A stretch of 64,000 nt of DNA, taken from positions 1-64,000 of the IMG/VR virus record IMGVR_UViG_3300034190_001539; one strand, 5' to 3'. The notes beneath the pieces are model-generated. The model had not been told where the DNA came from and made no database searches. It was given only the letters and a program-made list of their open reading frames with translations. Source of the DNA: a virus. A program made the position numbers and the translations under genes. This document shows positions 20,573 to 41,392 of the stretch, piece by piece (positions within the stretch are counted from its first letter, which is position 1; every line of letters begins with the position of its first letter).

Positions 20573-20878
20573 TTACTCTGCAGCTGCTATTTCTTGAGTT
20601 TCTTCTTTAGATGTTGGTGTAAAAATACCTGTTTTTGGATTTAATTGACCAGGGCCATACTTTTCATTCAACTCTTTAACCAAATCACGTTCCTTTTGTT
20701 GGGTTTCGGCATAATCTGATTGTAGTTGCATTTCACTTTCTTCAATCTGTTCTGCTCTTTGATTATTCACAAGCTTCTGTACTGAAACTTGCCCTAACAA
20801 AATCTGAATGTCTTGATACTTTTGACTTAAATCACTAAGAGACTTTAACTCTTCTTCCGTAAACTTAATTTCACTCAT
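20573..20878 (-). CDS. Small coiled-coil hypothetical protein
   Basis: 101 aa, AGGAG SD, heptad pattern ending in KYGPGQLNPKTGIF. Confidence 0.7.
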   Translation of the reverse strand: MSEIKFTEEELKSLSDLSQKYQDIQILLGQVSVQKLVNNQRAEQIEESEMQLQSDYAETQQKERDLVKELNEKYGPGQLNPKTGIFTPTSKEETQEIAAAE

Positions 20879-20939: not shown

Positions 20940-23378
20940 TTAACCATTTGGCCATCTAATTTTGTCTTTATCAGCCCAATTATCAATATTTGTTATACCG
21001 CCTCTGAATTTATTAGGATGTCTTTCATCTTGCATTGATGGACTGTGAAATCCAAATTGTCCATCCCAATCATTACCACGTTTTTCATTAGCTTCAAAGG
21101 AAAAGTCAGCTGCTAACTCTTCAGGTGCAAACTTCATTCCGTTTTCTTCTAAATACTTTCTGTGGATTCTGCAGATAGCATCATCATCCGATGGATATAA
21201 ATCTATAACATCATCTTTTTGTACAAAGTCTAACATCTTTTTACTTATCAGACTAAATCCAGCATTCCCAACATTATTTTCTTCATACCACCACGGTGCG
21301 CCTATGTAATCATAGTTTAAGAACTCATCTTTCCAAGCCTTTGGATTTAAGATAAAGCCATCAAATTCTATATGTAAAATGTATTTAGTTTTGATGTAAG
21401 AATTCATTTTTTTCCACATAAAGTGTATTACATCTAAGTTTGATTGACAATGAGGAATTTTAATTATATCATCATTGTCTCTGTCCATAGAAGTAAAGAA
21501 TTTAACATCTCCAAATTGAGCATATATAGTAGAAATATTAACTGCTCTCAAAGCCCTTTCGTAGTCAATACAATCCACTATCACCAATGTCACATCTTTT
21601 AAATCTAGCTTTTCTTTTTCATACCACCATTCTTTTCCGTGATTATACTCTCTTCTCGGTGGATATTTTTTTACTATCTGTTCCATAGTTTTGTCTTTCA
21701 TTAGAAGTGATTCGTGTCTTGGAATCTCATCGTTATATTCACCTTGCCAAGTAGATTCTACTCCAAAATGTGTGCAACCACCAACGTAACAGGCTATAAA
21801 ATTATCTCTGTTTTGTTTACCACCACTTTCTTCGTGCCACCATTGTACCCACCAATCTAAACCTGCAAACCAAGCACAGTAGTCATTATTTGTTTTTGTC
21901 TCTGAATACAAATCTACATCTATCGGTAGCATTTTAAATAATTCATCACGTCTCATCATCATATTACCAGCTCTGGCAGTTTGTCTATATAACCAATTAC
22001 CATCTTTGTGTGTAATATCGTGTTCAGGTGAATTATAAAATGTTGCTATTGTTACATTATCTTCTTCATCTAATTTATCACATAATATAGATAATGGTTC
22101 GTGATATTGATTATCGTGGTCTGAAAACATAATGTATTGGCAATTATCAAAGAACCCACTTTCCCAAATTTTATTTGTTCCACCTCTTTGTCCTAAATTT
22201 TCATCAATAGAAATTATAGTTATATTATCATATTCTTTACAAACCTCAATTGCTTGTTCTTTCAAATCAGAATTATCAGATTGTTCTAAAACACAAATTT
22301 TATCATTAGGTTCTATAACTTCCATTAAAGAATCTAAAGTTCTTTTTAAATAATAAGGTTTATTGTAACTCAATAATTGTATAGCAACTCGTGTGGCATT
22401 TTCTCCTTTACCCCAACTATGAAATCCACCCGAAAAGAATTCGTGTTGAGTAAATTCTCCTTTTATCTTTCTATGTCCTTCTTTTTTTAAATCTACCCCA
22501 TCCCAATATTTTGTTTTGAAACCAAGTATTTCTTTTACTATATCAGCTGATGTTGCTTCTTCTATCTCTACATCTTTATCTATGATTCCATAGTATTCAT
22601 CTAATTGTGATTGTGAAGTAACTACAGGATTTTGCCAACCATCAAATGTAAAATTCATCATTTCAATTAAACCCAAAGGTAGTTTATTTTGTTGTTTATA
22701 AGAAATTGAATTAAATGAACTTTGTCTGTTTTTTTCTTCGACTCTCCATTGATCCATTTCATAATCATACTTATTTGAAGTAATTAAGGGAAATCTTCCT
22801 ATATCATATCTAGCGTATAAGTTTGGTATTGGTTCATCTATATATTCTTCAACACTATTTTGATTAATATCCAATACACCTTTGTTATAAGTTTCTGTAA
22901 ATTTTATGATTTCGTCTGTGTTTTGATTAGAAAAGTGTCCTCTATCGAATTCATCTGTAGCGATGAATAGTTTACATCCTGTATGTTTTTGGAATTTTTT
23001 ACAATACTCTAACCACTCACTAGCCTCTTCCCAACTCAATGTATCTAAAACTATCTGTACATTTTTACCTCTCAAATCATAATCATATCTTTTTAAAAAA
23101 TTGAATTCACCATTTTCAACTGAATATACTTTGAAAACCCAATCAGCGTGCCATTGAACCCAATTGGATTGCCATGAACCCATACCTACAAGTTGAAATG
23201 AATCCCAATAACACAATTGTCCTTTTTGGTTTTTTAAATATTGTTCTACATATAAAGTATAATATTTATCGTTAGTGTGTATACACCTAACTATAGGATC
23301 TTTAATTATTTTGATGTGATCTTTTCTTTCTTGCATAAATTCTCCCTCCCAAGGAGCTCTAATCGGCCTTCTTCTCAT
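20940..23378 (-). CDS. Multidomain glycosyltransferase: degenerate Aah/TibC-like N-region, GT2 domain, DUF5672-like domain
   Basis: YDLRGKNV...FQKHTGCKLFI resembles the N-region of the 1331-aa protein; LLSYNKPYYLKRTLDSL, ENLG and DHD (GT-A fold); C-terminal DGFILNPKAWKDEFLNYDYIGAPW...FGFH. Confidence 0.75.
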   Translation of the reverse strand: MRRRPIRAPWEGEFMQERKDHIKIIKDPIVRCIHTNDKYYTLYVEQYLKNQKGQLCYWDSFQLVGMGSWQSNWVQWHADWVFKVYSVENGEFNFLKRYDYDLRGKNVQIVLDTLSWEEASEWLEYCKKFQKHTGCKLFIATDEFDRGHFSNQNTDEIIKFTETYNKGVLDINQNSVEEYIDEPIPNLYARYDIGRFPLITSNKYDYEMDQWRVEEKNRQSSFNSISYKQQNKLPLGLIEMMNFTFDGWQNPVVTSQSQLDEYYGIIDKDVEIEEATSADIVKEILGFKTKYWDGVDLKKEGHRKIKGEFTQHEFFSGGFHSWGKGENATRVAIQLLSYNKPYYLKRTLDSLMEVIEPNDKICVLEQSDNSDLKEQAIEVCKEYDNITIISIDENLGQRGGTNKIWESGFFDNCQYIMFSDHDNQYHEPLSILCDKLDEEDNVTIATFYNSPEHDITHKDGNWLYRQTARAGNMMMRRDELFKMLPIDVDLYSETKTNNDYCAWFAGLDWWVQWWHEESGGKQNRDNFIACYVGGCTHFGVESTWQGEYNDEIPRHESLLMKDKTMEQIVKKYPPRREYNHGKEWWYEKEKLDLKDVTLVIVDCIDYERALRAVNISTIYAQFGDVKFFTSMDRDNDDIIKIPHCQSNLDVIHFMWKKMNSYIKTKYILHIEFDGFILNPKAWKDEFLNYDYIGAPWWYEENNVGNAGFSLISKKMLDFVQKDDVIDLYPSDDDAICRIHRKYLEENGMKFAPEELAADFSFEANEKRGNDWDGQFGFHSPSMQDERHPNKFRGGITNIDNWADKDKIRWPNG

Positions 23379-24972
23379 TTTTACTCCAATATAAATTATC
23401 CTCTACTATTAAATAATCAACAGTACCTTTTTTTAAATGTTCAAATGGTTGATTCAAATCAAATATAATTGGTTCTCCATGACCATTAAAAGATGTATTT
23501 AAAAGAACTGGTATTTTAGATATTTTATCATATTCGTTTAAGATGCTATGAAAAAACTTATTTCTTTCTTTAAAAACTAATTGTGGTCTCAGAGTATTAT
23601 CTACTCTATGAACTACAGCAGGTATTTTATCAATCCACTCATCTTTTACTGTATAACACATTGTCATAAACTCAGCAGTCATTTTTGATTTTGTATTTTT
23701 ACAAATATCATCTATCTTTTCTCCTAAAATAATCGGAGCGAATGGCATTATTTCGTGTCTTTCTAATCTGTCATTTAAAGTTTCGTGCATTTCTTTATCT
23801 GTGGCTCTAACTAATATACTTCTAGCACCCAATGCTCTAGGCCCGTATTCCATTTTTCCCTGAAAACAACCGATGATATTTCCATCATCTAATAATTGAG
23901 CAACTTTTTTAGGATTAAATTTTTCTTTTTGAAAATCCCATTCCTTTTCTTCTTTTTTTATTTCATCCTTTGTATAATGGTTTCCTAAAAACATATTTTC
24001 AAATCTTTTATTTTTCCACTCACCCAATTCTACTGATTTCATTATAGCTGCAGCTAGCGCTAATCCAGAATCACTCATAGCTGGGTAGACATATACTTCA
24101 TCAACCCAATCTAATTCATTTATTTTTTGATTTAATTTTACATTGGCAAAAATACCACCAGCAACTGCTACCCTTTTGTATTCAGGATAAAATTTATGTA
24201 AATCTTCTAAGTATTCTAAAAAAACATCCTCTGTTAATTTTTGTACATTGAAAGCCCATTCAGCTTTTATTTCAAAATTACTATTCCAATCATCAATGCT
24301 ATCTGTAATGTTTCCCATAAGAGTTTCTAATTTTTGCCAATTACCAACAGGACCGAAGCTTAAATCATTTGTATAATGTAATGTCTGTTTTAGTTTATTA
24401 TAAATTTTTTCATTATATTTTCCGTGTCCGGCCATACCCATAAGCTTTCCCTCATCTTTAAGAGAATGCCACACCTTTCCCTCTGGCGCAAACCAAGGTG
24501 TACAACGACCAAAAAACTGACCAATAGATGCTGATTTATCTTTTAATTGTTTATGTACTAAATGTAATTTATCATCATATCCTAAATAAACTCTACCAAC
24601 AGTTTTAAAACCACTTCCGTCGTGAGTAACAACTAAAGTCTTTTCTTTAAAGCCTGAAGTATAGTAAGCACCAGCAGCATGACATAAGTGATGTGGATAT
24701 GTAACAATCTTTCTTCTAATTTCATCTGATTTGTATCTATCAAAGTCTGGCTCTGCTACCTCTGCTATACATATATAATCAGAATCCTCTGTCTTATATC
24801 CAAAATCATTTTCTATTGTATCTAGAGCAAACCAAGGATAAACTCCACTAAGAGCAAAAGATTTAATCTTACGAATTCTTTCTTCTTCTATAACTATCTT
24901 TATATCACCATCCTCTATATAAGCCACACAAGAATCATGAGCATGCCCAATCAATCCAAATATCTTACTCAT
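23359..24972 (-). CDS. O-carbamoyltransferase (CmcH/NodU/TobZ family), complete
   Basis: HDS, EEER, HHLCHA, DGSG, EGKLMGMA, GGIFANVKLN, PAMSDSG, EYGPRALGARS, PFAP, LNTSFNGHGEPI. Confidence 0.95.
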   Translation of the reverse strand: MSKIFGLIGHAHDSCVAYIEDGDIKIVIEEERIRKIKSFALSGVYPWFALDTIENDFGYKTEDSDYICIAEVAEPDFDRYKSDEIRRKIVTYPHHLCHAAGAYYTSGFKEKTLVVTHDGSGFKTVGRVYLGYDDKLHLVHKQLKDKSASIGQFFGRCTPWFAPEGKVWHSLKDEGKLMGMAGHGKYNEKIYNKLKQTLHYTNDLSFGPVGNWQKLETLMGNITDSIDDWNSNFEIKAEWAFNVQKLTEDVFLEYLEDLHKFYPEYKRVAVAGGIFANVKLNQKINELDWVDEVYVYPAMSDSGLALAAAIMKSVELGEWKNKRFENMFLGNHYTKDEIKKEEKEWDFQKEKFNPKKVAQLLDDGNIIGCFQGKMEYGPRALGARSILVRATDKEMHETLNDRLERHEIMPFAPIILGEKIDDICKNTKSKMTAEFMTMCYTVKDEWIDKIPAVVHRVDNTLRPQLVFKERNKFFHSILNEYDKISKIPVLLNTSFNGHGEPIIFDLNQPFEHLKKGTVDYLIVEDNLYWSKNEKKAD

Positions 24973-26900
24973 AAAGCGTATTCCTTATTTATATCAACTG
25001 CAGTTTTGTATATTTCCATATCATCCCTATTTAGATTTTCTATAAATCCTCTATCTATTTTTTCATATTCTTCTTTATATAAATCCCACTTTGAGTTTTG
25101 TATAGTATTTTTAAAATCAGAATCTCCTGATTCTACATCGAAATATGGGTAATTAGAATCTTTTATTTTGACACCAAACATCTTTTCAAATTTTTTCAAA
25201 CTATCATTGTAAGATTCAGTAATTCCTATGAAATCTATTTTTTCAAAGTTTCCTTCAATATATTTACCATAAATATTTTTTGAAAATTCTAATTCACAAT
25301 ATTCATATAAACTTAAATCTTCTTCTATTATTTTATTTTGTATTGGATTGTGATGTGATGGTGAGCTTTTTAAAAAATAATATTCTGATATTAATCTGTC
25401 AATTGGATTTCTAAACCAAGTAACTAATTTATGAGAAGATAAGTCTGAATACTTACCCAATCTAAAATGTCCGTGTATACATTGAAAGTGTTTAGTATCA
25501 ACTGAGGGAGTTAATTCGTATTTATTCCAAGTTGGATGATCACCATAATCTTCATATAAAAGAAAATCTTCTTTTTTCGTAAAATATTTTTCATCATACA
25601 AAACTCTATCTCTTACATTTACCTTTGCATCTCTAGCTCCAAAAATATCATATAGTACATTTCTAAACAAATTACCACCAGTTCTAGGTATATGAGATGA
25701 TATTATCCTAAGCTTTGATTCTTCTTTTTTAGTATGAATTATTTCACCATCTTTTGGCATAGTCCATAAATCTTTATATTTATAATAATCCCACAATCTA
25801 TCATCATTGAATGGATATATCTCATCATTTAAAGCCATATCAATAGTTTCTTTAGATAGCGTAGGACATCTTTCAGTTCCCAAAGGGCTCATAGTTAAAT
25901 GTGATGTATCGGGATATAACCAACCTAAATGATTTATAGTGTCATTATATCCTGTTGTAGAGTTTTCACCCGCGCCTCCATTTGGTGATTCATTAGGAAA
26001 TAATGGTTGAAAATGTTTAACTCTTTCAAAATGTTTTTCTCCACAAGGTATAACTTCCATACGATTAGTTACTGTAAGTAAAGGTAATTGAACATAATCT
26101 GGATGAAATCCAGCAAATATAGTTTGTACACTACCTGCTTCTTTTAGTCTTTGTTTTTCTGGCAGTATTCCAATTGTCTTTAAACCTAATCCCTTTGCTA
26201 TATGATATATACTACTTTGTGCGCCTATGTATATAGGAAATTCAGCAACAAAGTCAATTAATTTATTTCTAGAAACATTTAACACATGCGTATCAGCTGA
26301 TTTAACGAGATAGTCATCGGATAAACCTAATTGTACACAACGATAAGTTTTTGATAAATGTCCAACCACTTCTTCTAATAAATCATTATCTCCAAATCTA
26401 CCACCAGTTTTACTATTTAGTGTAAACAATATAGTGTTCTTTCTCTTTTTAATATTTGGTGAAGCAAATAGTTTTGGTGTATAATCCTCTGTTCTTAATC
26501 CCCAAGTATTAGTACATCTCTGAATTGTTGTTCCAAAAGTTCCCATAGAACCCCATTTGTAATCGAAATTATGAGTACCATCTACATATGGATTGTGTTG
26601 AAATACATCAATAAACCACTTTGGTATAAATACTTTACATCCCTTATAATATATTTTTAATAACTCAGGCAGTCTAGTGTATGGAATAATATCACCAAAA
26701 GAAGTACCACGATCAGATCTGTAGTCTACTGCTATTTCGGGATGTCCTATATAAAAATTATAGTCATCAGGAACATGCGGCGGAAAACCTTCAAAATCTA
26801 ATATCTCTTCTTGAAAGTTTTTAACTTTCCAAAAGTCTTTTGTCTGATTAATATAATGAAGAATATCCCCATCGGTTTGTGGCTTTTTAGCTATATTCAT
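24969..26900 (-). CDS. GT9-like glycosyltransferase fused to a sulfotransferase
   Basis: FGDI...HNPYVD and YIGAQSSIYHIAKGLG (GT-B/GT9-like); C-terminal HIPRTGG (5'-PSB), HGHF and RNPIDRLISEY (3'-PB) sulfotransferase motifs. Confidence 0.8.
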   Translation of the reverse strand: MNIAKKPQTDGDILHYINQTKDFWKVKNFQEEILDFEGFPPHVPDDYNFYIGHPEIAVDYRSDRGTSFGDIIPYTRLPELLKIYYKGCKVFIPKWFIDVFQHNPYVDGTHNFDYKWGSMGTFGTTIQRCTNTWGLRTEDYTPKLFASPNIKKRKNTILFTLNSKTGGRFGDNDLLEEVVGHLSKTYRCVQLGLSDDYLVKSADTHVLNVSRNKLIDFVAEFPIYIGAQSSIYHIAKGLGLKTIGILPEKQRLKEAGSVQTIFAGFHPDYVQLPLLTVTNRMEVIPCGEKHFERVKHFQPLFPNESPNGGAGENSTTGYNDTINHLGWLYPDTSHLTMSPLGTERCPTLSKETIDMALNDEIYPFNDDRLWDYYKYKDLWTMPKDGEIIHTKKEESKLRIISSHIPRTGGNLFRNVLYDIFGARDAKVNVRDRVLYDEKYFTKKEDFLLYEDYGDHPTWNKYELTPSVDTKHFQCIHGHFRLGKYSDLSSHKLVTWFRNPIDRLISEYYFLKSSPSHHNPIQNKIIEEDLSLYEYCELEFSKNIYGKYIEGNFEKIDFIGITESYNDSLKKFEKMFGVKIKDSNYPYFDVESGDSDFKNTIQNSKWDLYKEEYEKIDRGFIENLNRDDMEIYKTAVDINKEYAL

Positions 26901-28176
26901 TAAAAGCTCCTAATATTTCTTTTTCATTATATTTTTTTCCCATAAAAGCACTTTCCTCTCTATTAGACAAGTTGAAAATTCCTTTTTTACTATGAAAGTT
27001 AAAGTAACCATAAAAAGCACATCCTAAACTTATACCACTATCATCAGCTGCTGGAACAAAAAAGTGATTATCAAAAATATCTAAATCTATTATTTTTTGA
27101 TTTGCCACAGAATTTAAGAAACTGCCACCTGCAGCACAAAAGTTTTTGACATCTGAAATCATTGAACACTTTTTAGCTAAAAATTCAACAACTCTTTCAA
27201 ATTGATTTTGTACAAACCAAGCATGATCTGCTTTAGATTGAAAATCATTTTCATATATAGTATCACTCATATAAGATGGTATTGGTGTATTTATATACAT
27301 TTCATCTAATTCTTCTTGTTCTTCATATGGGAGGTGTTCATGAGCCCTTATCAAATATTCACCAACCTTAGGATCTTTATCAATGTATACCATTGGTTCT
27401 TTATATTTTTGTTTAACTTTATCTTCATCTCCAAAGGGAGCTAATCCCATAAGTTTTCCAGCATCATCTCCAGTCAAACCTATGTGAATACAATTGTCAT
27501 AATACCACTCCCCAAGTGATTTTCCTAATCTATATCTAGTGCTAAAACCAGAACCATCTTTGTGTTTTCCTACTGTATTAAAATATGAGTAAGCTGCTTT
27601 GTATCGAGAGTATATTCTTTTGAATACACCTTTTTTAACTTCATAAATACTAGTAGCTTCAACACACTCACCAAGTCTTGTTTTTTGAGTATGTGCTATT
27701 TTGTTTTCTACAAAATCATCTACTGTTTGTTTGTAATTCATTTCACCAGCATTGTCAGCTACTAAAATAATAGATTCATCAAAACCACTTGAGTAATGAG
27801 TTGAGTATGCGTGTGCTAAATGATGTGTACAATAATTTAATCTATCATTTGGCAAATTATATCCATTTTTTTTCAACTTCTGAACTAAAAATCCGTCTAC
27901 ACTTATTTGTTGGTCTGGTGTTAAACCAATGCCATTCCAAACAATTCTATCTAAATCCATTTTCTGTATATTAGCATAGTCTAAACAATAGTCCATAGCT
28001 TTCCAAGGAAATTCTATTAATGAATAATCCCAATTATTTTCTTCTGGCGATGGATAGCCATTGTCATTTTTAATTCTAGTAATTCTTTCTAAATTTATAG
28101 AAACGAATACCTTGCCTTCTCTCAGTAAAGTAGCGCCAGATTGATGTCCTATGTTTACACCTAAAACCCAAGTCAT
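26887..28176 (-). CDS. Carbamoyltransferase N-terminal (Kae1-like) domain only
   Basis: HHLAHA, GKLMGLAPFG, AGGSFLNSVAN and PAADDSG present; ends at the interdomain linker with no GPRALG/LNTSFN domain. Confidence 0.85.
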   Translation of the reverse strand: MTWVLGVNIGHQSGATLLREGKVFVSINLERITRIKNDNGYPSPEENNWDYSLIEFPWKAMDYCLDYANIQKMDLDRIVWNGIGLTPDQQISVDGFLVQKLKKNGYNLPNDRLNYCTHHLAHAYSTHYSSGFDESIILVADNAGEMNYKQTVDDFVENKIAHTQKTRLGECVEATSIYEVKKGVFKRIYSRYKAAYSYFNTVGKHKDGSGFSTRYRLGKSLGEWYYDNCIHIGLTGDDAGKLMGLAPFGDEDKVKQKYKEPMVYIDKDPKVGEYLIRAHEHLPYEEQEELDEMYINTPIPSYMSDTIYENDFQSKADHAWFVQNQFERVVEFLAKKCSMISDVKNFCAAGGSFLNSVANQKIIDLDIFDNHFFVPAADDSGISLGCAFYGYFNFHSKKGIFNLSNREESAFMGKKYNEKEILGAFNEYS

Positions 28177-28179
28177 TTA

Positions 28180-31100
28180 TTAGTCTCTGATTGGTGTTAT
28201 TAAATAATTTTCTACAACTAAATAATCAATATCATTTTTAAGAAAACATCTTATAGCATCAGCAGGTGTCTCTACTATAGGTTCACCAGCCTCATTAAAA
28301 GATGTATTCAATATTACTGGAATGCCTGATAGCTTTCCGAACTCTTTTATAACATCATAATATCTTTGATTGGTTTCTCTTCTTACAGTTTGTAATCTAG
28401 CAGTTCCATCTACGTGTGTTATGGATGGCAACTTTTTTTTAAACTCCTCTTTTACTTGAGCTATTAACAACATATATGGGCTTTCTGTAGTATGTGTAAA
28501 GTATTTATCAGCATCTTCTACAGTACAAGCAGGAGCAAATGGTCTATACCACTCTCTATGTTTTACCCTATTGTTAATTATATCTTGCATATCGGGATGT
28601 GTTGGATCTCCTAATATACTACGATGTCCTAATGCTCTTGGCCCCATTTCACTTCCACCTTGAAAGAAACCAACAACTTTTCCTTCGTGTACAAATGAGG
28701 CAATTTTTTTAGCTAAAGCATCCTCATCCTCAATTTTTTCGTAAGTTATTTTATCAACATTATTTATATCACTCATTATTTCCTCCTCAGAGTAATCTTT
28801 ACCCATAAAGACAGTCTCTTCTTTATTACTTAAATTTACCTTACCTTTGTCAGGATGAAAATTGTAATATCCATAAAAAGCAGTTCCAATTGATATACCA
28901 CCATCGTCTGCTGCTGGTACATAAAAATGGTCATCAAATAAATCTAAATCGACTATTTTTTGATTAGCAATTGAATTAAGGAAGCAACCACCAGCGCCTG
29001 TCAAGTATTTAACATCGGAATTCATTGAAGCCTTTTTAGCTAAAAATAATATTAAATCTTCAAATTTATTTTGAATCATCCAAGCCCAATCAGCTTTTGA
29101 TTGAAAATCTTCTGATGCTATATTAGAACTAAAATATTCTGGTCTTGGAGAATCTATATACATAAGAGTTTCTGCAGTTTGTTCTTCTCTCGGAACTGCG
29201 TGATGTACTCTTATAAAATAATCTCCTGATTTTGGGTCTGGGTCTATATAAACCATTTTCTCATTAAATCTTTTGTTAGCTACCTCAGGCCTACCATATG
29301 AAGCTAAACCCATAAGTTTTCCAGCATCATATAGTCCATCCATACCTATGTAGTTACAACCTAAAGCATAAAGTTCTCCAACTGACTGTCCTAATGTCGG
29401 CCATAATTCACCAGCTTCTGGAAAAGGTTTATAAGCTCCGTATATTTTAGTGAATACACCCTTTTTAATTTCATAGATACTACTGGCCTCTACACATTTC
29501 TCTATCGGATATTTTTTCATATGTGCTATTTTGTTGGTGGTGAACTTATCAATCACATCTCTGAAATTGGTTTCTCCGCCAGCATCTACTACAATCGAAA
29601 CAGACTCTTCAAACCCACTCGAATAGTGTGCTGAATAAGCATGAGCTAAATGATGAGTACAATAGTTTAATCTATCTTCAGTAAAATGCCAACCATTGTC
29701 TTTTAGTCTATTAGCCCAAAGTCCATTTGGATCAATTGCTAAGTCAGGAGGTAAACCTATACCATTCCAAACAATTCTTTCCAAATCTTTTTTAGTTATT
29801 CCAGCATAATCTAAACAATATTCCATAGCTTTCCAAGGAAAATCATCATTAGCCTCATCGTGCTTTATTCTAGAAATTCTTTCTGAATTTATTGAGACAA
29901 ATACTTTTCCATTTTTTACTAGTGTAGCGCCAGAGTCGTGTCCAATATTTACCCCCATAACCCATCTATCTTCACCAACTTTAATAGGTTCTATGTTATT
30001 TTTGTTTTTATTAAAAACAATAGTTCCATCATATGAATCACTGCTACCTTTTTTATATTTAGGTACAAAACCACATTTTGTTAATTTTTTTAATAAAGGC
30101 TGTAATCTATCAGTATTATGATGAAACTCTAATAAGATTTGATTTACATTATTTTTTAAATAATCTTCGCTAGCATTTAAGAAGATTTCATATTCGGCAC
30201 CCTCTACATCACATTTAATAAGATCTATATAATCTATTTTGTTCTGTTTGATAAAATCATCAAAAGACAAACATTCAACATTAGCAGTTGTTATATCTCT
30301 TTCAAATGTATATGGATTGTTATAATTAACAGGATTAACCCATTTTTCTATTTCAGGCCAATCGTTGATATAAAAAGAACCATTTGATGTAGAATGTTGT
30401 GGGTATTTTAACCATCTATTTTCAGTAATTTCTCCTAATGCACTATTGGAAATAATTACATTATCTGATTCTTTAAATGTTTTGTTAAGTCCACTCCACA
30501 AATCCGGATTTGGTTCTAGTGAATAACAAACTTTAACATTTTGTTTTGAAACCCATCTTGTGAAAACTCCTATATGTGATCCTATATCCATCACCACAGA
30601 ATCTTCGTTAAGATTGAATAAACCTTTATACTCATCTGCATAAAATATTTCTTTATGGTTTGCCCAATTTACATCAAATTCATTAGTTATATATTTAAAT
30701 TCATCTTTATTTTTAACAGAGTTGTCATTTAATTTTATGCTAAATGTTTTAATTTTAATTTTTTCTTTTGTGTAAACTACGACATCTACTTTATCTAAAT
30801 AATAATTTTCCCAAGGAGTAACATAATTAAATGGAAGCCAATAAGATGTATTCTCATCAAAAGCTATTTTTGAAGTGTATAAGGTTAAATCAGAATATGG
30901 GTCTACTACTCTGACAATAAATTCCGATTTCCTATCATTATAAAACCAAAGTTTACCTACTTCTGTTGCATCTACTGTTAGATTTGTAACATTTTTTATC
31001 TTATTACCTAATTTTATTTTTTTATTTAACATAACTTTTATTCCCTCAATCACCATTTCAGGTGTTATTTTTTTAGTACACTCAAATTCTCTATCTGTTC

Positions 31101-32175: not shown

Positions 32176-32254
32176 TTTTTTTTCTCTTTAGCCATTAAAA
32201 CCCTTTGTTATATATATACTATGAAAACATCAAAAAATAATTTATTTTTGCATT

Positions 32255-32500
32255 TTAGTACGAACCACTAACATCATTTCCTATCCAAAATAGATTACAT
32301 TCTGGACAAAATGAACCTGTTATAAAGTCTCCTATCTCTTCATCATCGCTATCCATATCGTGAGTTGAAGATATTTTTAGTAATGAACCTGAAGTCGCTC
32401 CTTTTGTACTAATGATACTATAATCTTCCGTTCTGCATATGTATATTGATTCGGATAATTGTGTTGTTCCATCACAACTTCCACTGTGTATTAGACTCAT
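32255..32500 (-). CDS. Small Cys-containing protein next to the fibre genes
   Basis: 81 aa, four Cys including CPEC; four [S/T]GS motifs. Confidence 0.6.
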   Translation of the reverse strand: MSLIHSGSCDGTTQLSESIYICRTEDYSIISTKGATSGSLLKISSTHDMDSDDEEIGDFITGSFCPECNLFWIGNDVSGSY

Positions 32501-32504
32501 ATCA

Positions 32505-33278
32505 TTATCCTGTTATGTAAATACCTAAGAAAAGAGTACCCATATTTGATCCGTAACCATAGCCTGTAAAATCAATAGTATTAGAAGAAAATGTAATTTC
32601 AGGAAACCTTAGATAAACATCTTTGCTAGCACCAGCACCACTTGATTCATAATAAATAGTATCACCATTTACACCTGTTCCACTTGACGGAGGTGTACCA
32701 TTACGGTGATTCCATCTTCCTGCCGTAGTCGCAGTAGCTATATCAATAAATGTAGCGCTGTGATCGTATGCTGTATTAGTGGTTAGGGATGTTGTTTGAA
32801 TACCAGTGAATCCTGCTGTAGCGAATGATGACCATCTTTCGGTGGAGTTATAATTTATTCTTCTCACCTGAGCATCAGATCTAAAAGAAGTTCCTGACTC
32901 AAATCTAAAGAAAATGTGACCTGTATTGCCGATGATTGATGCTCCTGCATAAGCTGCTGCTGATAAATCTATACCGGAAACAGTTACTAAACCAGTACCT
33001 TGATCTCCTGAAAACATTTGAGTAGAGCTACTATTACCATAAGAGCCTACCGCTACCTTATCATGATCGTAGGCATAAAATTCGGACATCGCGTGTGGAG
33101 TAAGACCATCAGGTCTATCATCGGAAGCATTAGCAGTATTTATAGTACCTTCTATACCACGAGAACAATCTTCTAATGATATTGGATTACCATCAAAAAT
33201 AGCTGTTGAATAATCATTGGTTCTTATTTCTTGATGTATACCTTTTAATGATATTGCACCACTACTTGGAACTGCCAT
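32505..33278 (-). CDS. Putative fibre-tip adhesin / receptor-binding protein
   Basis: [11 protein letters not shown]...MSEFYAY N-terminal module typical of genes that follow S74-ended fibres; TAATG-coupled to the fibre gene. Confidence 0.6.
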   Translation of the reverse strand: MAVPSSGAISLKGIHQEIRTNDYSTAIFDGNPISLEDCSRGIEGTINTANASDDRPDGLTPHAMSEFYAYDHDKVAVGSYGNSSSTQMFSGDQGTGLVTVSGIDLSAAAYAGASIIGNTGHIFFRFESGTSFRSDAQVRRINYNSTERWSSFATAGFTGIQTTSLTTNTAYDHSATFIDIATATTAGRWNHRNGTPPSSGTGVNGDTIYYESSGAGASKDVYLRFPEITFSSNTIDFTGYGYGSNMGTLFLGIYITG

Positions 33279-36200
33279 TATTTCAACGCCTCTAGTTCTC
33301 GTCTAAGTTCATCGATTTGTTTTTGTTGGTCCTTTATAGACTCTATTAGTAATGGAACTATCTTTTCGTATTTTACTGTCAAGTAATCTTCACCAGATTT
33401 TGAATTACCATCTTTATCTAAATCAAAAGGAGCAATATGAACAACTTCTGGTAATACTTTTTGTACAGATTGTGCACTAACACCTATTTGAATATCATCA
33501 TGTTCAAATCCAAAACTTTTTGCTAAATCATTGTTTTTGTAAGTAAATACTTCTATATCCTTAATTTTATTTATTGGATTATCTATACCAATTTTAATTC
33601 TATCTTTTAGTCTAGTATCTGAATAGTAAGCAGTTACATCACCAGTGACTGTAAAGTTGGTTGTAGTTACATCAATTCTAGCGGTAGAATCTCCATCATA
33701 AATTGCAATTCGTTGAGTAGAATTTCCACCACCATTTAAGAAAAGAGTACCTCCATTTTTAGCACTTACAAATGTGTGACCATCTGTCGTATCATAAAGC
33801 ATCAGATAATCAGTAGTATTATGGTCATCTGTAGTGAATGCTAAATATCTAGCAGTGCTAGCTGCCCAAGGTTTCATTTGAAAATGATGAGTTGCTACTG
33901 TAGCGGCTGAAAAGTCTCCTGTTATATCTAAAGGACCAGTAAGAATGAAATCAGTACCATCCCATACTAAAGAAGCATCAAAACTCGCAACCGCTGCCCC
34001 AGTTCCAAATACAAGCTTTGTATTATCATAAAATTTAAGGTGGTCTTGTGATTCATCCCAAATCATTTTTCTAGCTGAGGTAGCACCAAAGAATGTTACA
34101 TCTATTCCAGTATCATCTACACCAAATTCAACTGGAGCACCTGAAAATCTAGATTGATCTTCGGCAAAATGAACCCTTTCACCAATAGCTTTAATTGTAA
34201 CATTATTGATTGCATCTGAGTCTTGGGTGTCACCTATTGTCATTGTTTGACCATTGACATGTATTCCACCATTTTGAGCATTATGGCCAGATGATGCTAT
34301 CTTTAGTTCTGCATTAGTTGCACTTACTGACAAAATAGTACCATCAAAAGTCATATTAGCTTCAGCATTTATTGTAGATGAATCTACAGATGTTATTACT
34401 CTGTTATTAGTCTGATTGGTATACGAAGTTATTCCAGCATTACCACCAGTTCCACCAGTAGCACCTTGAGCGCCTTGCGCTCCAGTTCCGCCTGTTCCAC
34501 CAGTAGCACCTGTACCACCTGTTCCACCAGTGCCTGTTCCACCAGTTCCACCAGTAGCTCCAGTTTGACCTGTACCACCAGTTCCGCCTGTTCCACCAGT
34601 AGCACCTGTACCACCAGTTCCGCCTGTGCCAGTTCCACCAGTTCCACCAGTTCCACCTGTTCCGCCTGTAGCGCCAGTTTGACCAGTTCCTCCTGTTCCG
34701 CCTGTTTCTCCAGTACCACCAGTACCACCAGTTCCAGTTCCGCCAGTACCACCTGTGTGACCTGTACCACCAGTAGCACCAGTTGCTCCAGTAGCGCCTG
34801 TTTGTCCAGTTCCTCCAGTTCCACCAGTTCCAGTTCCACCTGTTCCGCCAGTAATGCCTTGCGCTCCAATTCCACCTGTTCCGCCTGTAATGCCTTGCGC
34901 TCCAATTCCACCAGTTCCTCCAGTTTGACCTGTACCACCAGTAGCACCAGTTGCTCCAGTAGCGCCTGTTTGTCCAGTTCCTCCTGTACCACCAGTTCCA
35001 GTTCCACCAGTTCCGCCAGTACCACCAGTACCACCAGTATGTCCAGTAGCACCTGTAGCGCCTGTTTGTCCAGTTCCGCCAGTTCCGCCAGTACCAGTAC
35101 CACCAGTACCACCAGTTCCGCCTGTTCCACCTGTTCCACCAGTAGCACCTACACCACCAGTACCACCTGTTTGACCTGTTCCACCAGTACCACCAGTGCC
35201 TGTTCCACCAGTTCCGCCAGTGTGACCTGTTCCCCCAGTTCCACCAGTATTACCTTGTCCACCAGTTCCGCCTGTTTGTCCAGTTCCACCTGTTCCACCA
35301 GTACCTGTTCCGCCTGTTCCACCAGTTTGACCAGTTCCGCCTGTTCCACCAGTTCCACCAGTCGCTGTACTAGCTGCTCCAGTTCCACCAGTTCCACCAG
35401 TTCCACCAGTAGCACCTGTTTGTCCAGTTCCTCCAGTTCCGCCAGTTCCGCCTGTTTGTCCAGTTCCGCCAGTTCCACCAGTTGCTCCTTGCGCTCCAAT
35501 TCCACCAGTTCCGCCTGTACCAGTTCCACCAGTTCCACCAGTAGCACCTGTTTGTCCAGTTCCTCCAGTTCCTCCAGTTCCGCCAGTTGCTCCTTGCGCT
35601 CCAGTTCCGCCTGTTCCTCCAGTACCTGTTCCACCAGTTCCACCAGTTGCTCCAGTTTGACCTGTACCGCCAGTTCCACCTGTCTGTCCAGTTCCACCTG
35701 TTCCACCAGTTTGACCTGTTCCACCAGTTCCGCCTGTTGCTGTACTAGCTGCTCCAGTTCCGCCAGTACCACCAGTACCAGTTCCGCCTGTTCCACCAGT
35801 TCCTCCAGTAGCGCCAGTTTGACCTGTTCCGCCTGTTCCACCAGTTGCTCCTTGCGCTCCAATTCCACCAGTTCCACCTGTGCCAGTTCCACCAGTTCCA
35901 CCAGTAGCACCTGTCTGTCCAGTACCACCTGTTCCGCCAGTTCCACCAGTAGCACCTTGCGCTCCAGTTCCGCCAGTTCCGCCAGTGCCAGTTCCACCAG
36001 TTCCACCAGTTCCACCAGTAGCACCTGTTTGTCCAGTTCCTCCAGTTCCGCCAGTTGCTCCTTGCGCCCCAATTCCACCAGTTCCTCCAGTACCTGTTCC
36101 GCCAGTACCACCTGTGTGACCTGTACCACCAGTTCCACCAGTAGCTCCTACTCCACCAGTTCCACCTGTTGCACCTACTCCACCAGTACCACCAGTACCT

Positions 36201-39200
36201 GTACCACCAGTTCCACCAGTTGCTCCAGTAGCACCTGTTTGTCCAGTTCCACCAGTTCCACCAGTAGCGCCTTGCGTTCCAATTCCACCAGTTCCTCCAG
36301 TGCCTGTTCCGCCAGTACCACCAGTTGCTCCAGTAGCACCTGTTTGTCCAGTTCCACCAGTTCCTCCAGTAGCGCCTTGCGTTCCAATTCCACCTGTTCC
36401 ACCAGTACCAGTTCCACCAGTACCACCTGTGTGACCAGTTCCACCAGTTCCGCCTGTAGCACCTACTCCGCCAGTTCCGCCTGTAGCACCTACACCACCA
36501 GTTCCACCAGTACCAGTTCCGCCAGTTCCACCAGTAGCACCAGTTGCTCCAGTAGCGCCTGTTTGTCCAGTCCCACCAGTTCCGCCAGTTTGACCTGTAC
36601 CACCAGTTCCGCCTGTGCCAGTTCCACCAGTTCCGCCTGTAGCACCTGTTTGTCCAGTTCCACCAGTACCACCAGTTGCTGTACTAGCTGCTCCAGTTCC
36701 GCCAGTTCCACCAGTTCCAGTTCCGCCAGTTCCACCTGTGTGACCAGTTCCGCCAGTTCCGCCTGTAGCTCCTATACCACCAGTACCACCTGTTGCGCCT
36801 ACACCACCAGTTCCGCCTGTAGCACCTACACCGCCAGTTCCACCAGTAGCACCTGTTTGTCCAGTTCCGCCTGTTCCACCAGTAGCACCTGTTTGTCCAG
36901 TTCCACCAGTACCACCAGTTCCTACTGTATAATCTACTCCATCTATTTGTAACAATCCAAACGAACCAGTTGAGGTTGATGAACCACTTATTGCATGTTG
37001 TCCACCAGTATAAACTATTCCATCACCCGTACCATTGTTTGTAATTGTTATTGCACCATTATTACCATCTTGCCTTAGATGTATTAATTCATTGTCCATT
37101 GAAGCATTTTCAGCAATAACACTAACAAGTGGATTTGCGGTAGCTGCCGCATTTGAGTATATCTCTAATGCTTTATCACCCGAATTAGTCGTATCTATGT
37201 AAACAGCTGGTGTGTCATAATCATCATGGTCAATGTGTATTGCTGTTTTATTATCTGAATATATTGATAGTGCAGCAGTATTTTCAATGTTTGATGAGTG
37301 TCCACCAAAAATTGACATTTTTTGAAATACTTCAAGTTTGTCCTCTACACGAGCTTTACTTGATTCTAACCTACCAAACGAACCAGTTGATGTTACTGAG
37401 CCACTTATGTTTCCAAGAGGCAACTCCAAATTACCTTCTTTAGTTAGTATAAAAGTATCTTGCATACCACCATCATTTTGTGATATAACAAACGATACAC
37501 TTGTTTCATCAAATCTTACTTTATTTTCACCACCTAATTTTAATTGACCAGTGTTTACAACCTCAGTTGTCATCTGAGAGTTGTCTACTTTAAATTTATC
37601 GTTTCCACCATTTCTATAAACTAATTGGTCATTATCATAAACTAATGAACCATTAGCATCAAAAACATAACTAAAAGATGTACCCTCTGTCCTTCCAAAC
37701 GAACCAGTTGATTCAAATGAACCACTTAAAAAAGTTCCATCAATAGTAAAGTTAGATTCAGCAGTTCCTGAACCATCACCATCTGCAGTTAATATTCTGT
37801 TCTCTCCATCATTGGCGATTGCCATAAATCCACCAGTTCCGCCTGTTTGACCTGTGCCACCAGTTCCACCAGTAGCACCTGTTTGTCCAGTTCCGCCTGT
37901 TCCACCAGTAGCACCTATACCACCAGTTCCACCAGTTCCAGTTCCACCAGTTCCGCCAGTAGCACCAGTTGCTCCAGTCTGTCCAGTTCCTCCAGTTCCT
38001 CCAGTTTGACCTGTACCACCAGTTCCACCAGTTTCGCCTGTTCCTCCTGTACCACCAGTCGCTGTACTAGCTGCTCCAGTTCCACCTGTACCACCAGTAC
38101 CAGTTCCACCAGTACCACCTGTGTGACCAGTTCCACCAGTTCCGCCTGTTTGTCCAGTTCCTCCTGTTCCGCCAGTTTGACCTGTACCACCAGTTCCACC
38201 AGTGCCTGTTCCACCAGTACCACCAGTTGCTCCAGTAGCACCAGTTGCTCCAGTTTGTCCAGTTCCTCCTGTTCCGCCAGTTTGACCTGTACCACCAGTT
38301 CCACCAGTGCCTGTTCCACCAGTTCCACCAGTTCCGCCTGTAGCGCCTGTTTGTCCAGTTCCACCTGTTCCGCCTGTAGCGCCTTGCGCTCCAATTCCAC
38401 CAGTTCCTCCAGTACCTGTTCCACCAGTTCCACCAGTCGCTCCAGTTGCTCCAGTTTCACCTGTTTGACCAGTTCCGCCTGTTCCGCCTGTAACACCTAC
38501 TCCACCAGTACCACCAGTACCAGTTCCGCCAGTTCCACCAGTAGCGCCAGTCTGACCTGTACCACCAGTTCCGCCAGTTTGACCAGTTCCGCCTGTTCCA
38601 CCTGTTTCGCCTGTACCACCAGTTCCGCCTGTTGCTGTACTAGCTGCTCCAGTTCCACCTGTTCCACCAGTACCTGTTCCACCAGTACCACCAGTAGCAC
38701 CTGTTGCTCCAGTCTGTCCAGTTCCACCAGTTCCGCCTGTAGCGCCTTGCGCTCCAATTCCTCCAGTACCACCAGTTCCAGTTCCACCTGTTCCGCCTGT
38801 TTGACCAGTACCACCTGTTCCACCAGTAGCACCTATACCACCAGTTCCTCCTGTAGCACCTACTCCACCAGTACCGCCAGTTCCAGTTCCACCTGTTCCG
38901 CCAGTTTGACCTGTTCCACCAGTACCGCCAGTACCTGTTCCACCAGTTCCGCCTGTGCCTCCTGTTGCACCTGTTTCTCCAGTTCCTCCAGTACCCCCAG
39001 TAGCGGTAGACGCAGCGCCAGTTCCGCCTGTTCCACCAGTTCCAGTTCCTCCTGTTCCGCCTGTTTCTCCAGTTCCACCAGTTCCGCCTGTTTGTCCAGT
39101 TCCGCCAGTTCCCCCTGTAACACCTACTCCACCAGTACCACCAGTGCCTGTTCCACCAGTTCCACCAGTTCCGCCTGTTGCTCCAGTAGCACCTGTTTGT

Positions 39201-41392
39201 CCAGTTCCTCCTGTTCCACCAGTTTGTCCAGTTCCTCCTGTACCACCAGTTCCAGTTCCACCAGTTCCGCCAGTAGCACCAGTTGCTCCAGTTTGTCCAG
39301 TTCCGCCAGTTCCGCCTGTCTCTCCATTACCGCCAGTACCACCAGTTCCAGTACCACCAGTTCCACCAGTTTGACCTGTTCCGCCAGTACCACCAGTTCC
39401 CTGACCACCAGTTCCGCCTGTTCCACCTGTATCTCCTACACCACCAGTACCACCAGTTCCAGTACCACCAGTTCCACCAGTTGCTCCAGTTGCTCCAGTT
39501 TGACCTGTTCCACCAGTACCACCAGTTGCTGTGCTAGCTGCTCCAGTACCACCAGTTCCACCAGTGCCAGTTCCACCAGTTCCGCCAGTACCACCAGTTG
39601 TTCCATCACCGCCAGTTCCTCCTGTAGAACCTACACCACCAGTTCCGCCAGTAACTCCTATACCACCAGTTCCGCCAGTACCTGTTCCGCCTGTTCCGCC
39701 AGTAGCACCAGTAGCTCCTGTTTGACCAGTTCCACCAGTTCCACCAGTTTCACCTGTTCCGCCTGTTCCGCCTGTTACTCCATCTCCACCTGTTCCACCA
39801 GTAACACCTATACCACCAGTTCCACCTGTGCCAGTTCCACCAGTTCCGCCTGTTTGACCAGTTCCACCTGTTCCTCCAGTTCCTTGTCCACCAGTTCCAC
39901 CAGTTGCTCCAGTTTGTCCAGTTCCGCCAGTTCCACCAGTACCTGTACCACCAGTTCCACCTGTTGCACCTGCTCCACCAGTACCACCAGTTCCAGTTCC
40001 GCCAGTTCCGCCTGTCTGCCCAGTTCCGCCTGTTCCACCAGTTTGACCTGTACCACCAGTTCCGCCTGTTTCGCCTGTTCCACCAGTTCCACCTGTGCCA
40101 GTTCCACCAGTTCCGCCTGTTTGACCAGTTCCACCTGTTCCACCAGTAACACCTATACCACCAGTACCACCAGTTCCTTGACCACCAGTACCACCTGTGT
40201 GACCTGTTCCACCAGTTCCTCCAGTTCCAGTTCCGCCAGTTCCTCCAGTTTCGCCTGTAGCACCTGTTTGTCCAGTTGCTCCAGTAGCACCTGTTTGTCC
40301 AGTTCCACCAGTTCCGCCTGTTTGACCTGTGCCACCAGTACCGCCAGTTCCTTGTCCACCAGTTCCACCAGTTCCACCTGTAACACCTACACCACCAGTT
40401 CCACCTGTGCCAGTTCCGCCAGTTCCACCAGTAGCACCTACACCACCAGTTCCGCCTGTCTGCCCAGTACCACCAGTTCCGCCTGTTTCACCTGTTCCAC
40501 CAGTACCACCAGTTCCAGTTCCACCTGTTCCACCAGTTGCTCCAGTTGCTCCAGTTTGACCTGTACCGCCAGTTCCACCTGTCTGTCCAGTTCCACCAGT
40601 TCCGCCTGTAGCACCTACACCACCAGTTCCGCCAGTTCCAGTTCCGCCAGTTCCACCAGTAGCACCAGTTGCTCCAGTAGCGCCTGTTTGTCCAGTTCCA
40701 CCTGTTCCGCCTGTCTGTCCAGTTCCACCTGTACCACCAGTACCAGTTCCACCAGTACCACCTGTTCCGCCTGTTGCTCCAGTAGCACCTGTTTGCCCAG
40801 TTCCACCAGTTCCGCCTGTCTGTCCAGTTCCACCAGTACCACCAGTACCAGTTCCGCCTGTTCCACCTGTTCCACCAGTAGCACCTACACCACCTGTTCC
40901 GCCAGTTTCACCTGTTCCACCAGTACCACCAGTACCAGTTCCACCAGTTCCACCAGTTGCTCCAGTAGCACCTGTTTGTCCAGTTCCGCCTGTTCCACCA
41001 GTAGCACCTATACCACCAGTTCCACCAGTTCCAGTTCCACCAGTTCCACCTGTTCCGCCTGTTGCTCCATCACCACCAGTTCCGCCAGTAGCACCTTCAC
41101 CACCAGTTCCACCAGTAGCACCAGTAGCGCCAGTAGCGCCAGTAGCACCAGTTGCTCCAGTAGCTCCAGTTTGACCAGTTCCACCAGTTCCACCAGTTCC
41201 TACTGTATAATCTTCACCATTTATTTGTAAAACACCAAATGAACCAGTTGATATTGCTGAACCACTAATATTACCAGCTACTGATATATAACCAAAAGAA
41301 CCCGATGTTTCGGATGAACCACTAATATTACCTTTCTTAACGATAATATCGTGATTAAATACATTTTTACCTATGTATTTGGGATTAGACAT
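33278..41392 (-). CDS. Giant Gly-X-Thr repeat fibre with C-terminal peptidase S74 intramolecular chaperone
   Basis: 2704 aa with two GXT blocks; C-terminal YYSDTRLKD...[15 protein letters not shown]...[19 protein letters not shown]. Confidence 0.9.
34440..36920 (-). repeat. Gly-X-Thr repeat block 2 (about 825 codons)
   Basis: Degenerate 9-bp units (ccaccagtt / ccgcctgtt on the + strand); far more GC-rich than the flanks. Confidence 0.95.
37830..41200 (-). repeat. Gly-X-Thr repeat block 1 (about 1,120 codons)
   Basis: Same degenerate 9-bp units as block 2. Confidence 0.95.

Follow-up and report, generated by a model that had tools for sequence, protein, structure and literature searches.

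The window analysed here comprises 64,000 nucleotides (nt), the first 64 kb of the 101-kb IMG/VR virus record IMGVR_UViG_3300034190_001539, which is estimated to be 55% complete; it has about 32% G+C and carries every gene on the minus strand. Between the genes for a giant repetitive fibre and for the tail sheath lies a cluster of five minus-strand genes (20940-32175) that encodes a candidate system for protein O-glycosylation and glycan tailoring. Gene 1 (28180-32175, -; 1331 aa) joins a TibC/Aah domain to an FkbM methyltransferase and a complete carbamoyltransferase, gene 2 (26887-28176, -; 429 aa) encodes a Kae1-like carbamoyltransferase half, gene 3 (24969-26900, -; 643 aa) has a TibC/GT9-like N-terminus and a sulfotransferase C-terminus, gene 4 (23359-24972, -; 537 aa) is a complete carbamoyltransferase, and gene 5 (20940-23378, -; 812 aa) combines a relative of the TibC N-terminal region with GT2 and DUF5672 domains. 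All five open reading frames (ORFs) are intact and are separated by 3 nt or overlap by 4-20 nt, so that the closely packed unit between fibre and sheath stands as given in a preliminary description made from the sequence. The domains named in that description were all recovered with Pfam and NCBIfam models except the GT9-like one, which was confirmed by hhalign, an AlphaFold model and Foldseek. None of the five enzymes has a signal peptide or a hydrophobic stretch resembling a membrane segment, and their chemistry would therefore be cytoplasmic, where virions assemble.

The TibC/Aah-family (BAHT) protein O-glycosyltransferase domain spans residues 9-380 of gene 1 (31036-32151, -). The preliminary description had proposed a profile search against the autotransporter heptosyltransferase family, and the domain scores 269.2 bits against TIGR04414 (hepto_Aah_TibC; 273.3 bits in a six-frame search), above the curated cut-off of 200 and over positions 11-372 of the 374 in the model, and aligns to the sequence of the TibC structure (PDB 4rap) in HMMER with an E-value of 6e-52. 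When this alignment is mapped onto the residues discussed in the TibC structure paper (PMC4358343), D98 corresponds to the catalytic base Asp110, with G97-D98 invariant in 18 relatives, while S223, a conservative change, and K227 correspond to Thr226 and Lys230, which contact the phosphate and the sugar. The adenine-reading Arg286 is matched by R280 and Trp305, which binds the heptose O4, by W299; S294 occupies the stereoselectivity position, Pro300 in TibC and Ser in AAH. The hydrophobic thumb tip, Phe265-Val266 in TibC, is Y259-M260 here, and the thumb-contacting Phe368 is F364; in TibC, a thumb with two successive hydrophobic residues and Phe368 are required for assembly of the dodecamer (PMC4358343). 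The four-cysteine finger noted earlier also holds up, as C337, C340, C354 and C366 align to Cys339, 342, 358 and 370 of TibC and are predicted to form the iron finger. By these alignments the domain is probably a full and active member of the TibC/Aah family with an ADP-heptose-type pocket, and because the contacts to ADP-heptose are conserved the transferred sugar would be a heptose. Every characterised BAHT member acts on proteins, and TibC and AAH modify Ser rather than Thr in their known substrates (PMC4358343). No autotransporter is encoded in the window; the neighbour of the TibC-like gene is a collagen-like fibre. Fusion of TibC-like and FkbM domains occurs in about 38 of 150 representative relatives.

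A second GT-B domain of this type, divergent and TibC/GT9-like, forms the N-terminus of gene 3 (25761-26900, -), which has no Pfam match and no iron finger. A profile built with 18 stand-alone relatives matches the TibC-like profile in hhalign with 90.6% probability and an E-value of 1.3e-6, and its invariant G69-D70 aligns to the catalytic Gly-Asp pair G97-D98 of gene 1. The AlphaFold model, computed from a 21-sequence alignment, has a predicted local distance difference test score of 80, and its best Foldseek matches are WaaF (1psw), TibC (4rap) and a GT9 enzyme (3tov), at E-values of about 5e-6 and template-modelling scores of just 0.37-0.44. As modelled, the gene 3 N-terminus is a second, divergent GT9/TibC-type transferase. 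In gene 5, a non-catalytic region related to the N-terminal beta-barrel of TibC (22791-23231, -) matches residues 29-205 of the TibC-like domain in BLASTP (E 5e-7) and has a partial TIGR04414 score of 19.5-21.5 bits; the catalytic Gly-Asp is not kept.

The remaining domains are those of glycan-tailoring and glycan-extending enzymes. The FkbM methyltransferase domain of gene 1 (residues 527-705; 30061-30597, -) scores 59.7 bits against PF05050 (cut-off 22.7) and 75.9 bits against TIGR01444 (cut-off 37.7). It is followed by a NodU/CmcH/TobZ-type carbamoyltransferase with Kae1-like and YrdC-like halves (residues 738-1326; 28198-29964, -; PF02543 95 bits, PF16861 240 bits), in whose translation an HHLAH motif is visible, and gene 4 likewise matches both families (PF02543 112 bits, PF16861 172 bits). 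The carbamoyltransferases score 150 bits against a NodU equivalog cut-off of 1000 and are therefore not NodU orthologues. Gene 2 matches only PF02543 (Carbam_trans_N, 77 bits), with Carbam_trans_C absent from the Pfam scan, and is 57% identical to residues 738-1138 of gene 1; it could use carbamoyl-adenylate from a neighbouring full-length enzyme. This half-size protein also keeps the HHLAH motif. The sulfotransferase domain of gene 3 (residues 397-632; 25005-25712, -) scores 28.1 bits against PF03567 (Sulfotransfer_2; cut-off 22), and its translation contains IPRTGG and RNPIDRLIS, which we take to be motifs resembling those that bind 3'-phosphoadenosine-5'-phosphosulfate. Gene 5 contributes a GT2 domain (residues 337-453; 22020-22370, -; PF00535, Glycos_transf_2, 39.9 bits) and a DUF5672 domain (residues 654-768; 21075-21419, -; PF18922, 51.2 bits).

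The degenerate parts of this set raise the question of whether the genes form a mosaic accessory island without joint function, some of whose members are decaying. Such a history would account for the missing YrdC-like half of gene 2, for the loss of the catalytic Gly-Asp from the TibC-like region of gene 5, and for the related locus L005, which lacks both the FkbM domain and the half-size carbamoyltransferase gene. The five frames are nevertheless intact and tightly coupled, the key catalytic residues are kept, and the related locus L004 retains the whole enzyme set at 77-88% identity, the 429-aa half-size carbamoyltransferase included, so that a functionless mosaic is improbable and a jointly acting enzyme set is the preferred reading.

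The fibre gene (33278-41392, -; 2704 aa) ends 1102 nt before gene 1 and encodes an N-terminal SGS..STGSFG region, two repeat blocks separated by a central non-repeat domain, and a C-terminal chaperone. The protein contains 1128 Gly, 685 Thr and 11 Pro, none of the Pro within the repeats, in agreement with the Thr-rich, Pro-free fibre about 1.1 kb upstream that had been described. Block 1 (residues about 65-1108; 38069-41200, -) consists of 54% Gly, 32% Thr and 0.4% Ser, with no Pro and 34 Gly-Thr breaks, and block 2 (residues about 1574-2318; 34439-36673, -) of 54% Gly, 31% Thr and 0.4% Ser, again with no Pro. Together they comprise about 535 Gly-X-Thr triplets in which X is mostly Gly (about 64%), Ala or Gln and whose register is broken by 57 Gly-Thr dipeptides. 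One recent survey counts Gly in the X or Y position as a collagen interruption and describes a Gly-Pro-Thr peptide that becomes triple-helical only once its Thr is galactosylated (PMC11923368). With X mostly Gly, Ala or Gln, no Pro and the Gly-Thr breaks, a classical triple helix is therefore uncertain. The C-terminus carries a Peptidase_S74 intramolecular chaperone domain (33437-33622, -; PF13884 36.3 bits, cut-off 22), which is typical of trimeric phage fibres and spikes and also terminates the giant Gly-X-Y fibres of related loci.

The association of TibC-like genes with such fibres extends well beyond the window. In a library of 1.84 billion representative proteins, TibC-like domains form 707 clusters at E < 1e-30, most of them multi-domain, with fusions to FkbM, GT4, GT2, CmcI-type methyltransferase or PIG-L domains. 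To judge by their domain types, these fusion partners, like the FkbM and carbamoyltransferase domains of gene 1, would act on the attached sugar. In IMG/VR, TibC-like genes are present on more than 600 contigs, and among the 50,697 records of the cultured-phage set the domain occurs in four, namely Mel-JY01 and three huge uncultured phages. Around TibC-like genes, 86 viral loci were retrieved; 34 of them have an ORF with 30 or more Gly-X-Y triplets that is poor in Pro and rich in Ser/Thr, and so do 18 of the 30 loci with full flanks of 10 kb. In 39 of the 86, a sheath homologue is found no more than 10 kb from the TibC-like gene. Many of the related Gly-X-Y ORFs encode 1200-2700 aa (up to 2718 aa), with Thr or Ser at X and Ser or Asn at Y, and several end in S74. 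In a recurrent module the giant fibre is followed, in order, by an ORF of about 220 aa, two proteins with GT4 domains (about 885 and about 316 aa), the TibC-like protein (about 400 aa), a small gene (about 83 aa) and the genes for sheath and tube. Judged by its gene order, the window locus is an expanded version of this canonical fibre-to-sheath module. In five loci with non-canonical gene order (L018, L027, L030, L071, L089) the TibC-like gene still adjoins the fibre gene.

The same link appears when the search is reversed. Among viral records chosen solely by a Gly-Thr-(Ser/Thr) DNA pattern, 19 of 74 encode a TibC-like protein, as do six of the seven that are at least 90% complete, against none of 47 records (none of 11 complete) chosen by a Gly-Pro collagen pattern (Fisher p 4.6e-5 for all records and 3.8e-4 for complete ones); single chance matches to a Gly-Gly-Thr pattern, used as a second control, gave a TibC-like gene in one of 37 records. 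Of the cultured or assembled phages nearest by head protein, three lack both the TibC-like gene and the Gly-Thr-Ser pattern and Mel-JY01 has both. The close relatives L004 (77% identity) and L005 (64%) retain fibre and cluster, and they alone share the Gly-X-Thr form of the fibre, nearly all other related fibres being Ser-rich. In the cultured phage Mel-JY01 (PP395634.1) a Gly-Thr/Ser-Ser repeat ORF of 1016 aa or more is followed, 1.7 kb downstream, by an FkbM-TibC fusion. The co-occurrence proposed at the outset as a check is thus found across phage contigs, in varied gene orders and in bacteria, and by gene neighbourhood TibC-like enzymes are strongly linked to Gly-X-(Ser/Thr) fibres. No open-access paper was found that links BAHT enzymes with collagen-like repeats or phages or that describes this module.

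The Mel-JY01 repeat frame (L003:2-3052, +) is full of GTSGSSG and is open at the start of the linear record. In its place the GenBank record annotates minus-strand hypothetical proteins at 1-651 and 739-2298, with VPEVP-type repeats, and a plus-strand coding sequence of 178 aa; the fibre gene seems to have been mis-annotated as shadow ORFs.

In bacteria, most TibC-like genes at 80 GTDB loci encode stand-alone enzymes of 370-460 aa, as expected for partners of autotransporters. In several betaproteobacterial, Methylococcales, Arenicellales and Pseudobdellovibrionaceae genomes, the TibC-like gene adjoins one for a small protein in which a lipoprotein-type signal precedes (Gly-Thr-Ser)n or (Gly-Ser-Ser)n (L340:11130-11429; L346:11199-11531; L367:11160-12041; L365:8516-8929, 11172-11783 and 12125-12586; -). 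These small Gly-Thr/Ser-Ser proteins are possibly a new class of glycosylated bacterial surface lipoproteins. Because the pairing occurs outside any phage context, it gives a stronger hint than any other observation that the acceptor is the repeat itself.

Taken together, these observations suggest that the cluster would constitute a phage-encoded cytoplasmic system for protein O-glycosylation and glycan tailoring. The TibC-like domain would transfer a sugar from a host-made nucleotide sugar to hydroxyl side chains of the fibre, and the glycan would be lengthened by the GT2 domain and the second TibC/GT9-like domain, perhaps together with DUF5672. FkbM would then O-methylate it, the carbamoyltransferases O-carbamoylate it and the sulfotransferase sulfate it, and the decorated fibre would be built into the virion. 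The acceptor, the sugar, the order of the steps, the action of all enzymes on one glycan and the tailoring chemistry are what we infer from comparison. That some virion protein is the acceptor is likely, and the adjacent Gly-X-Thr fibre is, by its genomic association with the enzymes, somewhat favoured for that role. The preliminary description had placed the glycan on the phage's own fibre or capsid: the fibre is favoured by family membership, by the position in the virion module and by co-occurrence, and the capsid gained no support. What had been observed at the locus is confirmed and the interpretation given to it is supported in part; its chemistry and purpose, which had been proposed as shielding, stabilisation of the repeat, adhesion or bait for host receptors, are matters that we likewise infer.

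A different virion protein could instead be modified, such as the Ser-rich non-repeat parts of the fibre (SGS..STGSFG), a 4103-aa fibre encoded just past the window, the sheath or the capsid. The Ser specificity of TibC and AAH would fit such an acceptor, as the Gly-X-Thr repeats are nearly free of Ser and the 4103-aa protein is 10% Ser, with long repeats and the STGSFG motif; so would the sheath gene found within 10 kb in 39 of 86 TibC loci and the precedent of mycobacteriophages, which are reported to glycosylate capsid and tail-tube proteins (Freeman et al. 2023, as cited in PMC12619734). Yet the constant partner of the enzyme is the repeat and not the sheath: the TibC-like gene stays beside the Gly-X-Y fibre in the five rearranged loci, and in bacteria, where phage genes are absent from its surroundings, it adjoins a gene for a (Gly-Thr-Ser)n lipoprotein. 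Another virion acceptor is accordingly unlikely beside modification of the Gly-X-Thr repeats.

The second giant fibre is an ORF of 4103 aa (G000:C1:64169-76480, -; L011:169-12480) with 13% Gly, 10% Ser and 10% Thr. It has no Pfam family and contains long near-identical repeats, with units containing LTGGGT..NVVGG..ITANAND. The SGS..STGSFG motif that it carries also flanks the Gly-X-Thr blocks of the 2704-aa fibre, and it is an alternative acceptor.

Several points weigh against glycosylation of the Gly-X-Thr fibre. The support for it is comparative throughout. The repeats contain about 31% Thr and 0.4% Ser, whereas TibC and AAH are known as Ser-modifying enzymes, and most related fibres have Ser at Y. 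Searches of the 101 kb, which cover about 55% of the genome, gave no relative of gmhA or hldE, and five complete genomes of TibC-bearing phages lack gmhA, just two of them having sub-threshold HldE-like halves; with no heptose-pathway genes found, heptose would therefore depend on the host. Carbamoyltransferases occur in 149 cultured phage records, mostly of cyanomyoviruses without a TibC-like gene, and therefore need not act on a protein-linked glycan. With the Gly-Gly-Thr pattern, which is that of the window fibre itself, one of eight multi-match records encodes a TibC-like protein, but all eight are fragments and this result says little either way. Part of the association may be due to common ancestry, many positive loci belonging to one aquatic myovirus group in which gene order is shared, and the control sets consisted mostly of smaller phages of other kinds.

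The enzymes might also remodel the host surface (lipopolysaccharide, capsule, an adhesin or an S-layer), for instance for superinfection exclusion, in which case they would lie by chance in an island of variable content within the structural module. Polysaccharide pathways typically include FkbM, GT2 and sulfotransferase domains, the carbamoyltransferases are the common accessory genes of cyanomyoviruses noted above, and the region from the tail-terminator-like gene to the sheath is presumably a site of accessory gene insertion in T4-like cyanophages. Set against this, the family of the initiating enzyme acts, in its known members, on proteins in the cytoplasm, the five proteins lack membrane segments and signal peptides, Pfam and NCBIfam scans of the cluster gave no flippase, polymerase or lipid-carrier transferase, and the enzyme gene tracks the fibre gene across phages. 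A host-surface target is thus rather improbable, and the fibre is retained as the favoured acceptor.

The genomic setting also bears on the target. The sheath gene (17974-20478, -; PHROG 23, E 2.4e-68) marks the virion module, in which the order of transcription is head protein, head-tail adaptor-like gene, stabiliser-like gene, three small ORFs, fibre, 257-aa gene, 81-aa gene, the five enzymes, 101-aa gene and sheath. Phage glycosyltransferases often act on DNA (PMC12619734), which would allow these enzymes to glycosylate or carbamoylate bases of the phage genome. However, the TibC family has no member known to modify nucleic acid, the cluster lies in the virion module and not in a replication module, and no hydroxymethylase or base-modifying gene turned up beside it in Pfam, NCBIfam and PHROG scans, which makes DNA modification a very remote prospect.

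Among characterised systems, the TibC-TibA and Aah-AIDA-I pairs of E. coli (PDB 4RAP/4RB4) are closest, with the same enzyme family, catalytic Asp, ADP-heptose contacts, thumb tip and four-Cys finger, and with a soluble cytoplasmic enzyme whose gene adjoins that of a long, repetitive, rod-like surface protein. The partner there is an autotransporter beta-helix modified on Ser, whereas here it is a collagen-like Gly-X-Thr phage fibre on which the acceptor would have to be Thr, and the enzyme shares its 1331-aa chain with methyltransferase and carbamoyltransferase domains. Mycobacteriophages offer a parallel in that, according to papers citing Freeman et al. 2023, glycosyltransferases encoded in the structural module decorate the phage's own virion proteins. 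In those accounts the enzymes belong to unrelated families and modify capsid and tail-tube subunits at their C-termini, and the accounts mention no collagen-like fibre, TibC-like enzyme, or carbamoyl or sulfate tailoring. As summarised in PMC11923368, BclA of the Bacillus anthracis exosporium and the cuticle collagen of Riftia carry O-glycosylated Thr in Gly-X-Thr, which can replace hydroxyproline for the triple helix. The window fibre resembles them in having Thr at the Y position; their repeats are Pro-rich Gly-Pro-Thr, in contrast to the Pro-free interrupted repeat here, and the glycosyltransferases differ. Relative to NodU, CmcH and TobZ, two of the three carbamoyltransferase units have both Pfam halves well above cut-off and the third has only the Kae1-like transfer half; an HHLxH metal motif is visible. 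Five viral modules (L024, L026, L048, L067, L089) share with the window the fibre-enzymes-sheath order, an S74-ended giant fibre and the TibC-like family. The common viral module pairs a Ser-rich fibre with a stand-alone TibC-like protein of about 400 aa and two GT4 proteins; the window locus has Thr-only repeats and, in place of GT4, three carbamoyltransferase units, a sulfotransferase, FkbM, GT2 and DUF5672. Its Thr-only repeat and its tailoring set, which also includes the second TibC-like transferase and is the richest among the loci examined, make it stand out.

A more general and more speculative extension is that BAHT-like enzymes define widespread viral and bacterial 'glyco-collagens'. 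A ring-shaped TibC-like assembly would thread a Pro-free Gly-X-(Ser/Thr) rod and decorate it processively, and the dense glycan, in place of hydroxyproline or salt bridges, would keep the repeat in an extended helix and give a bottle-brush whisker. In the window the glycan would be heptose-based with carbamoyl, methyl and sulfate groups, and the family would have to work on Thr; taken as a whole this proposal is tentative and rather doubtful. If true, hundreds of aquatic phage contigs would carry a second, mechanistically different virion glycosylation system; to our knowledge, phage virion glycosylation has so far been documented only for mycobacteriophages, with unrelated enzymes. The BAHT family would be extended from autotransporter adhesins to collagen-like repeats, providing candidate enzymes for how Pro-free, Thr/Ser-rich bacterial and viral 'collagens' fold and stay folded. 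About 1,800 fibre residues bearing a charged, carbamoylated and methylated glycan would also alter the encounters of the phage with hosts, grazers and particles in water.

With regard to expression, the enzyme unit begins 79 nt downstream of the 81-aa ORF, and a TATATATATA motif (32209-32218, -) lies 33-35 nt upstream of gene 1, of a class that is also seen before the sheath gene and genes of the scaffold region. Of the ten TATATATA sites, six fall within the 2% of the 101 kb that is non-coding, including those 42 nt before the sheath, 33-35 nt before gene 1 and before a scaffold-region gene. The TATATATATA motif upstream of gene 1 may be a late promoter, and the distribution of the motif is weak evidence that the cluster is co-expressed with virion genes. 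Scans for sigma-70 promoters and terminators in this DNA gave chance-level results. A second motif, ATATTTATATAT(G/A), occurs 16-130 nt upstream of many virion genes (20532, 17120, 17911, 48378, 49271, 53581, 62334 and others, - strand), and 10 of 23 TATTTATA sites in the 101 kb lie within the 2% non-coding part; by this placement it is likely a phage promoter class.

Gene 1 starts with TTG, and this codon overlaps (as TTGA) the TGA of a 7-codon ORF (32172-32195, -) whose ATG, at 32195, has a Shine-Dalgarno-like AAAGGG better than that of gene 1. The short ORF contains a run of eight A and could serve in translational coupling or as a slippery site; a TTG start overlapping a stop codon is a simpler reading than a -1 frameshift from the 7-codon ORF into gene 1. 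In L004 the gene 1 homologue overlaps an upstream ORF of 186 aa instead.

Of the small genes flanking the cluster, the 257-aa gene (32505-33278, -) overlaps the fibre stop codon by 1 nt and has no Pfam family; its homologue in L004 was recovered using the 257-aa ORF as query. ORFs that follow fibre genes (32505-33278, -, in the window; L004:5793-6842; L007:2157-3107 and 11163-12533) have in common an N-terminal motif, M-x-x-P-S-x-G-x-I-S ... MSEF-aromatic-G/A-Y, outside which they diverge, and family searches with them gave none. The 81-aa gene (32255-32500, -) is an ORF call with no Pfam family. The 101-aa gene between cluster and sheath (20573-20878, -), likewise an ORF call, has no family match in PHROG and Pfam searches, and its place is taken in related loci by a short ORF (about 83 aa). 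Two small ORFs follow the sheath gene, the second with a sub-threshold match to the gp19 tail tube (25.9 bits, cut-off 28.2).

Upstream of the fibre, the virion module includes a tail-sheath-stabiliser-like gene with a weak match (42260-43801, -) and the major head protein (45567-47189, -; PHROG 138, E 1e-72). This protein shares about 50% identity with its counterparts in Flavobacterium phage immuto and Microcystis phage Mel-JY01 and 39% with the one in Rhodothermus phage RM378, and the phage, which is uncultured, is therefore a member of a distant T4-like group. A megablast search of the cluster against cultured phages gave no match.

Two further proteins of the record are multi-domain. A 1262-aa protein (58515-62303, -) was considered as a heptose-activating enzyme and rejected, as HldE (rfaE) models give no match and its kinase is of the AAA_33/zeta type; it joins this zeta-toxin-like kinase to a cytidylyltransferase-like domain and may be an RNA-repair or NAD-related polyprotein. 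An ORF of 1051 aa (L011:12724-15879, -) unites a calcineurin-like phosphoesterase domain with an SMC/RecF-type ATPase, functions that in T4 are divided between the separate proteins gp47 and gp46.

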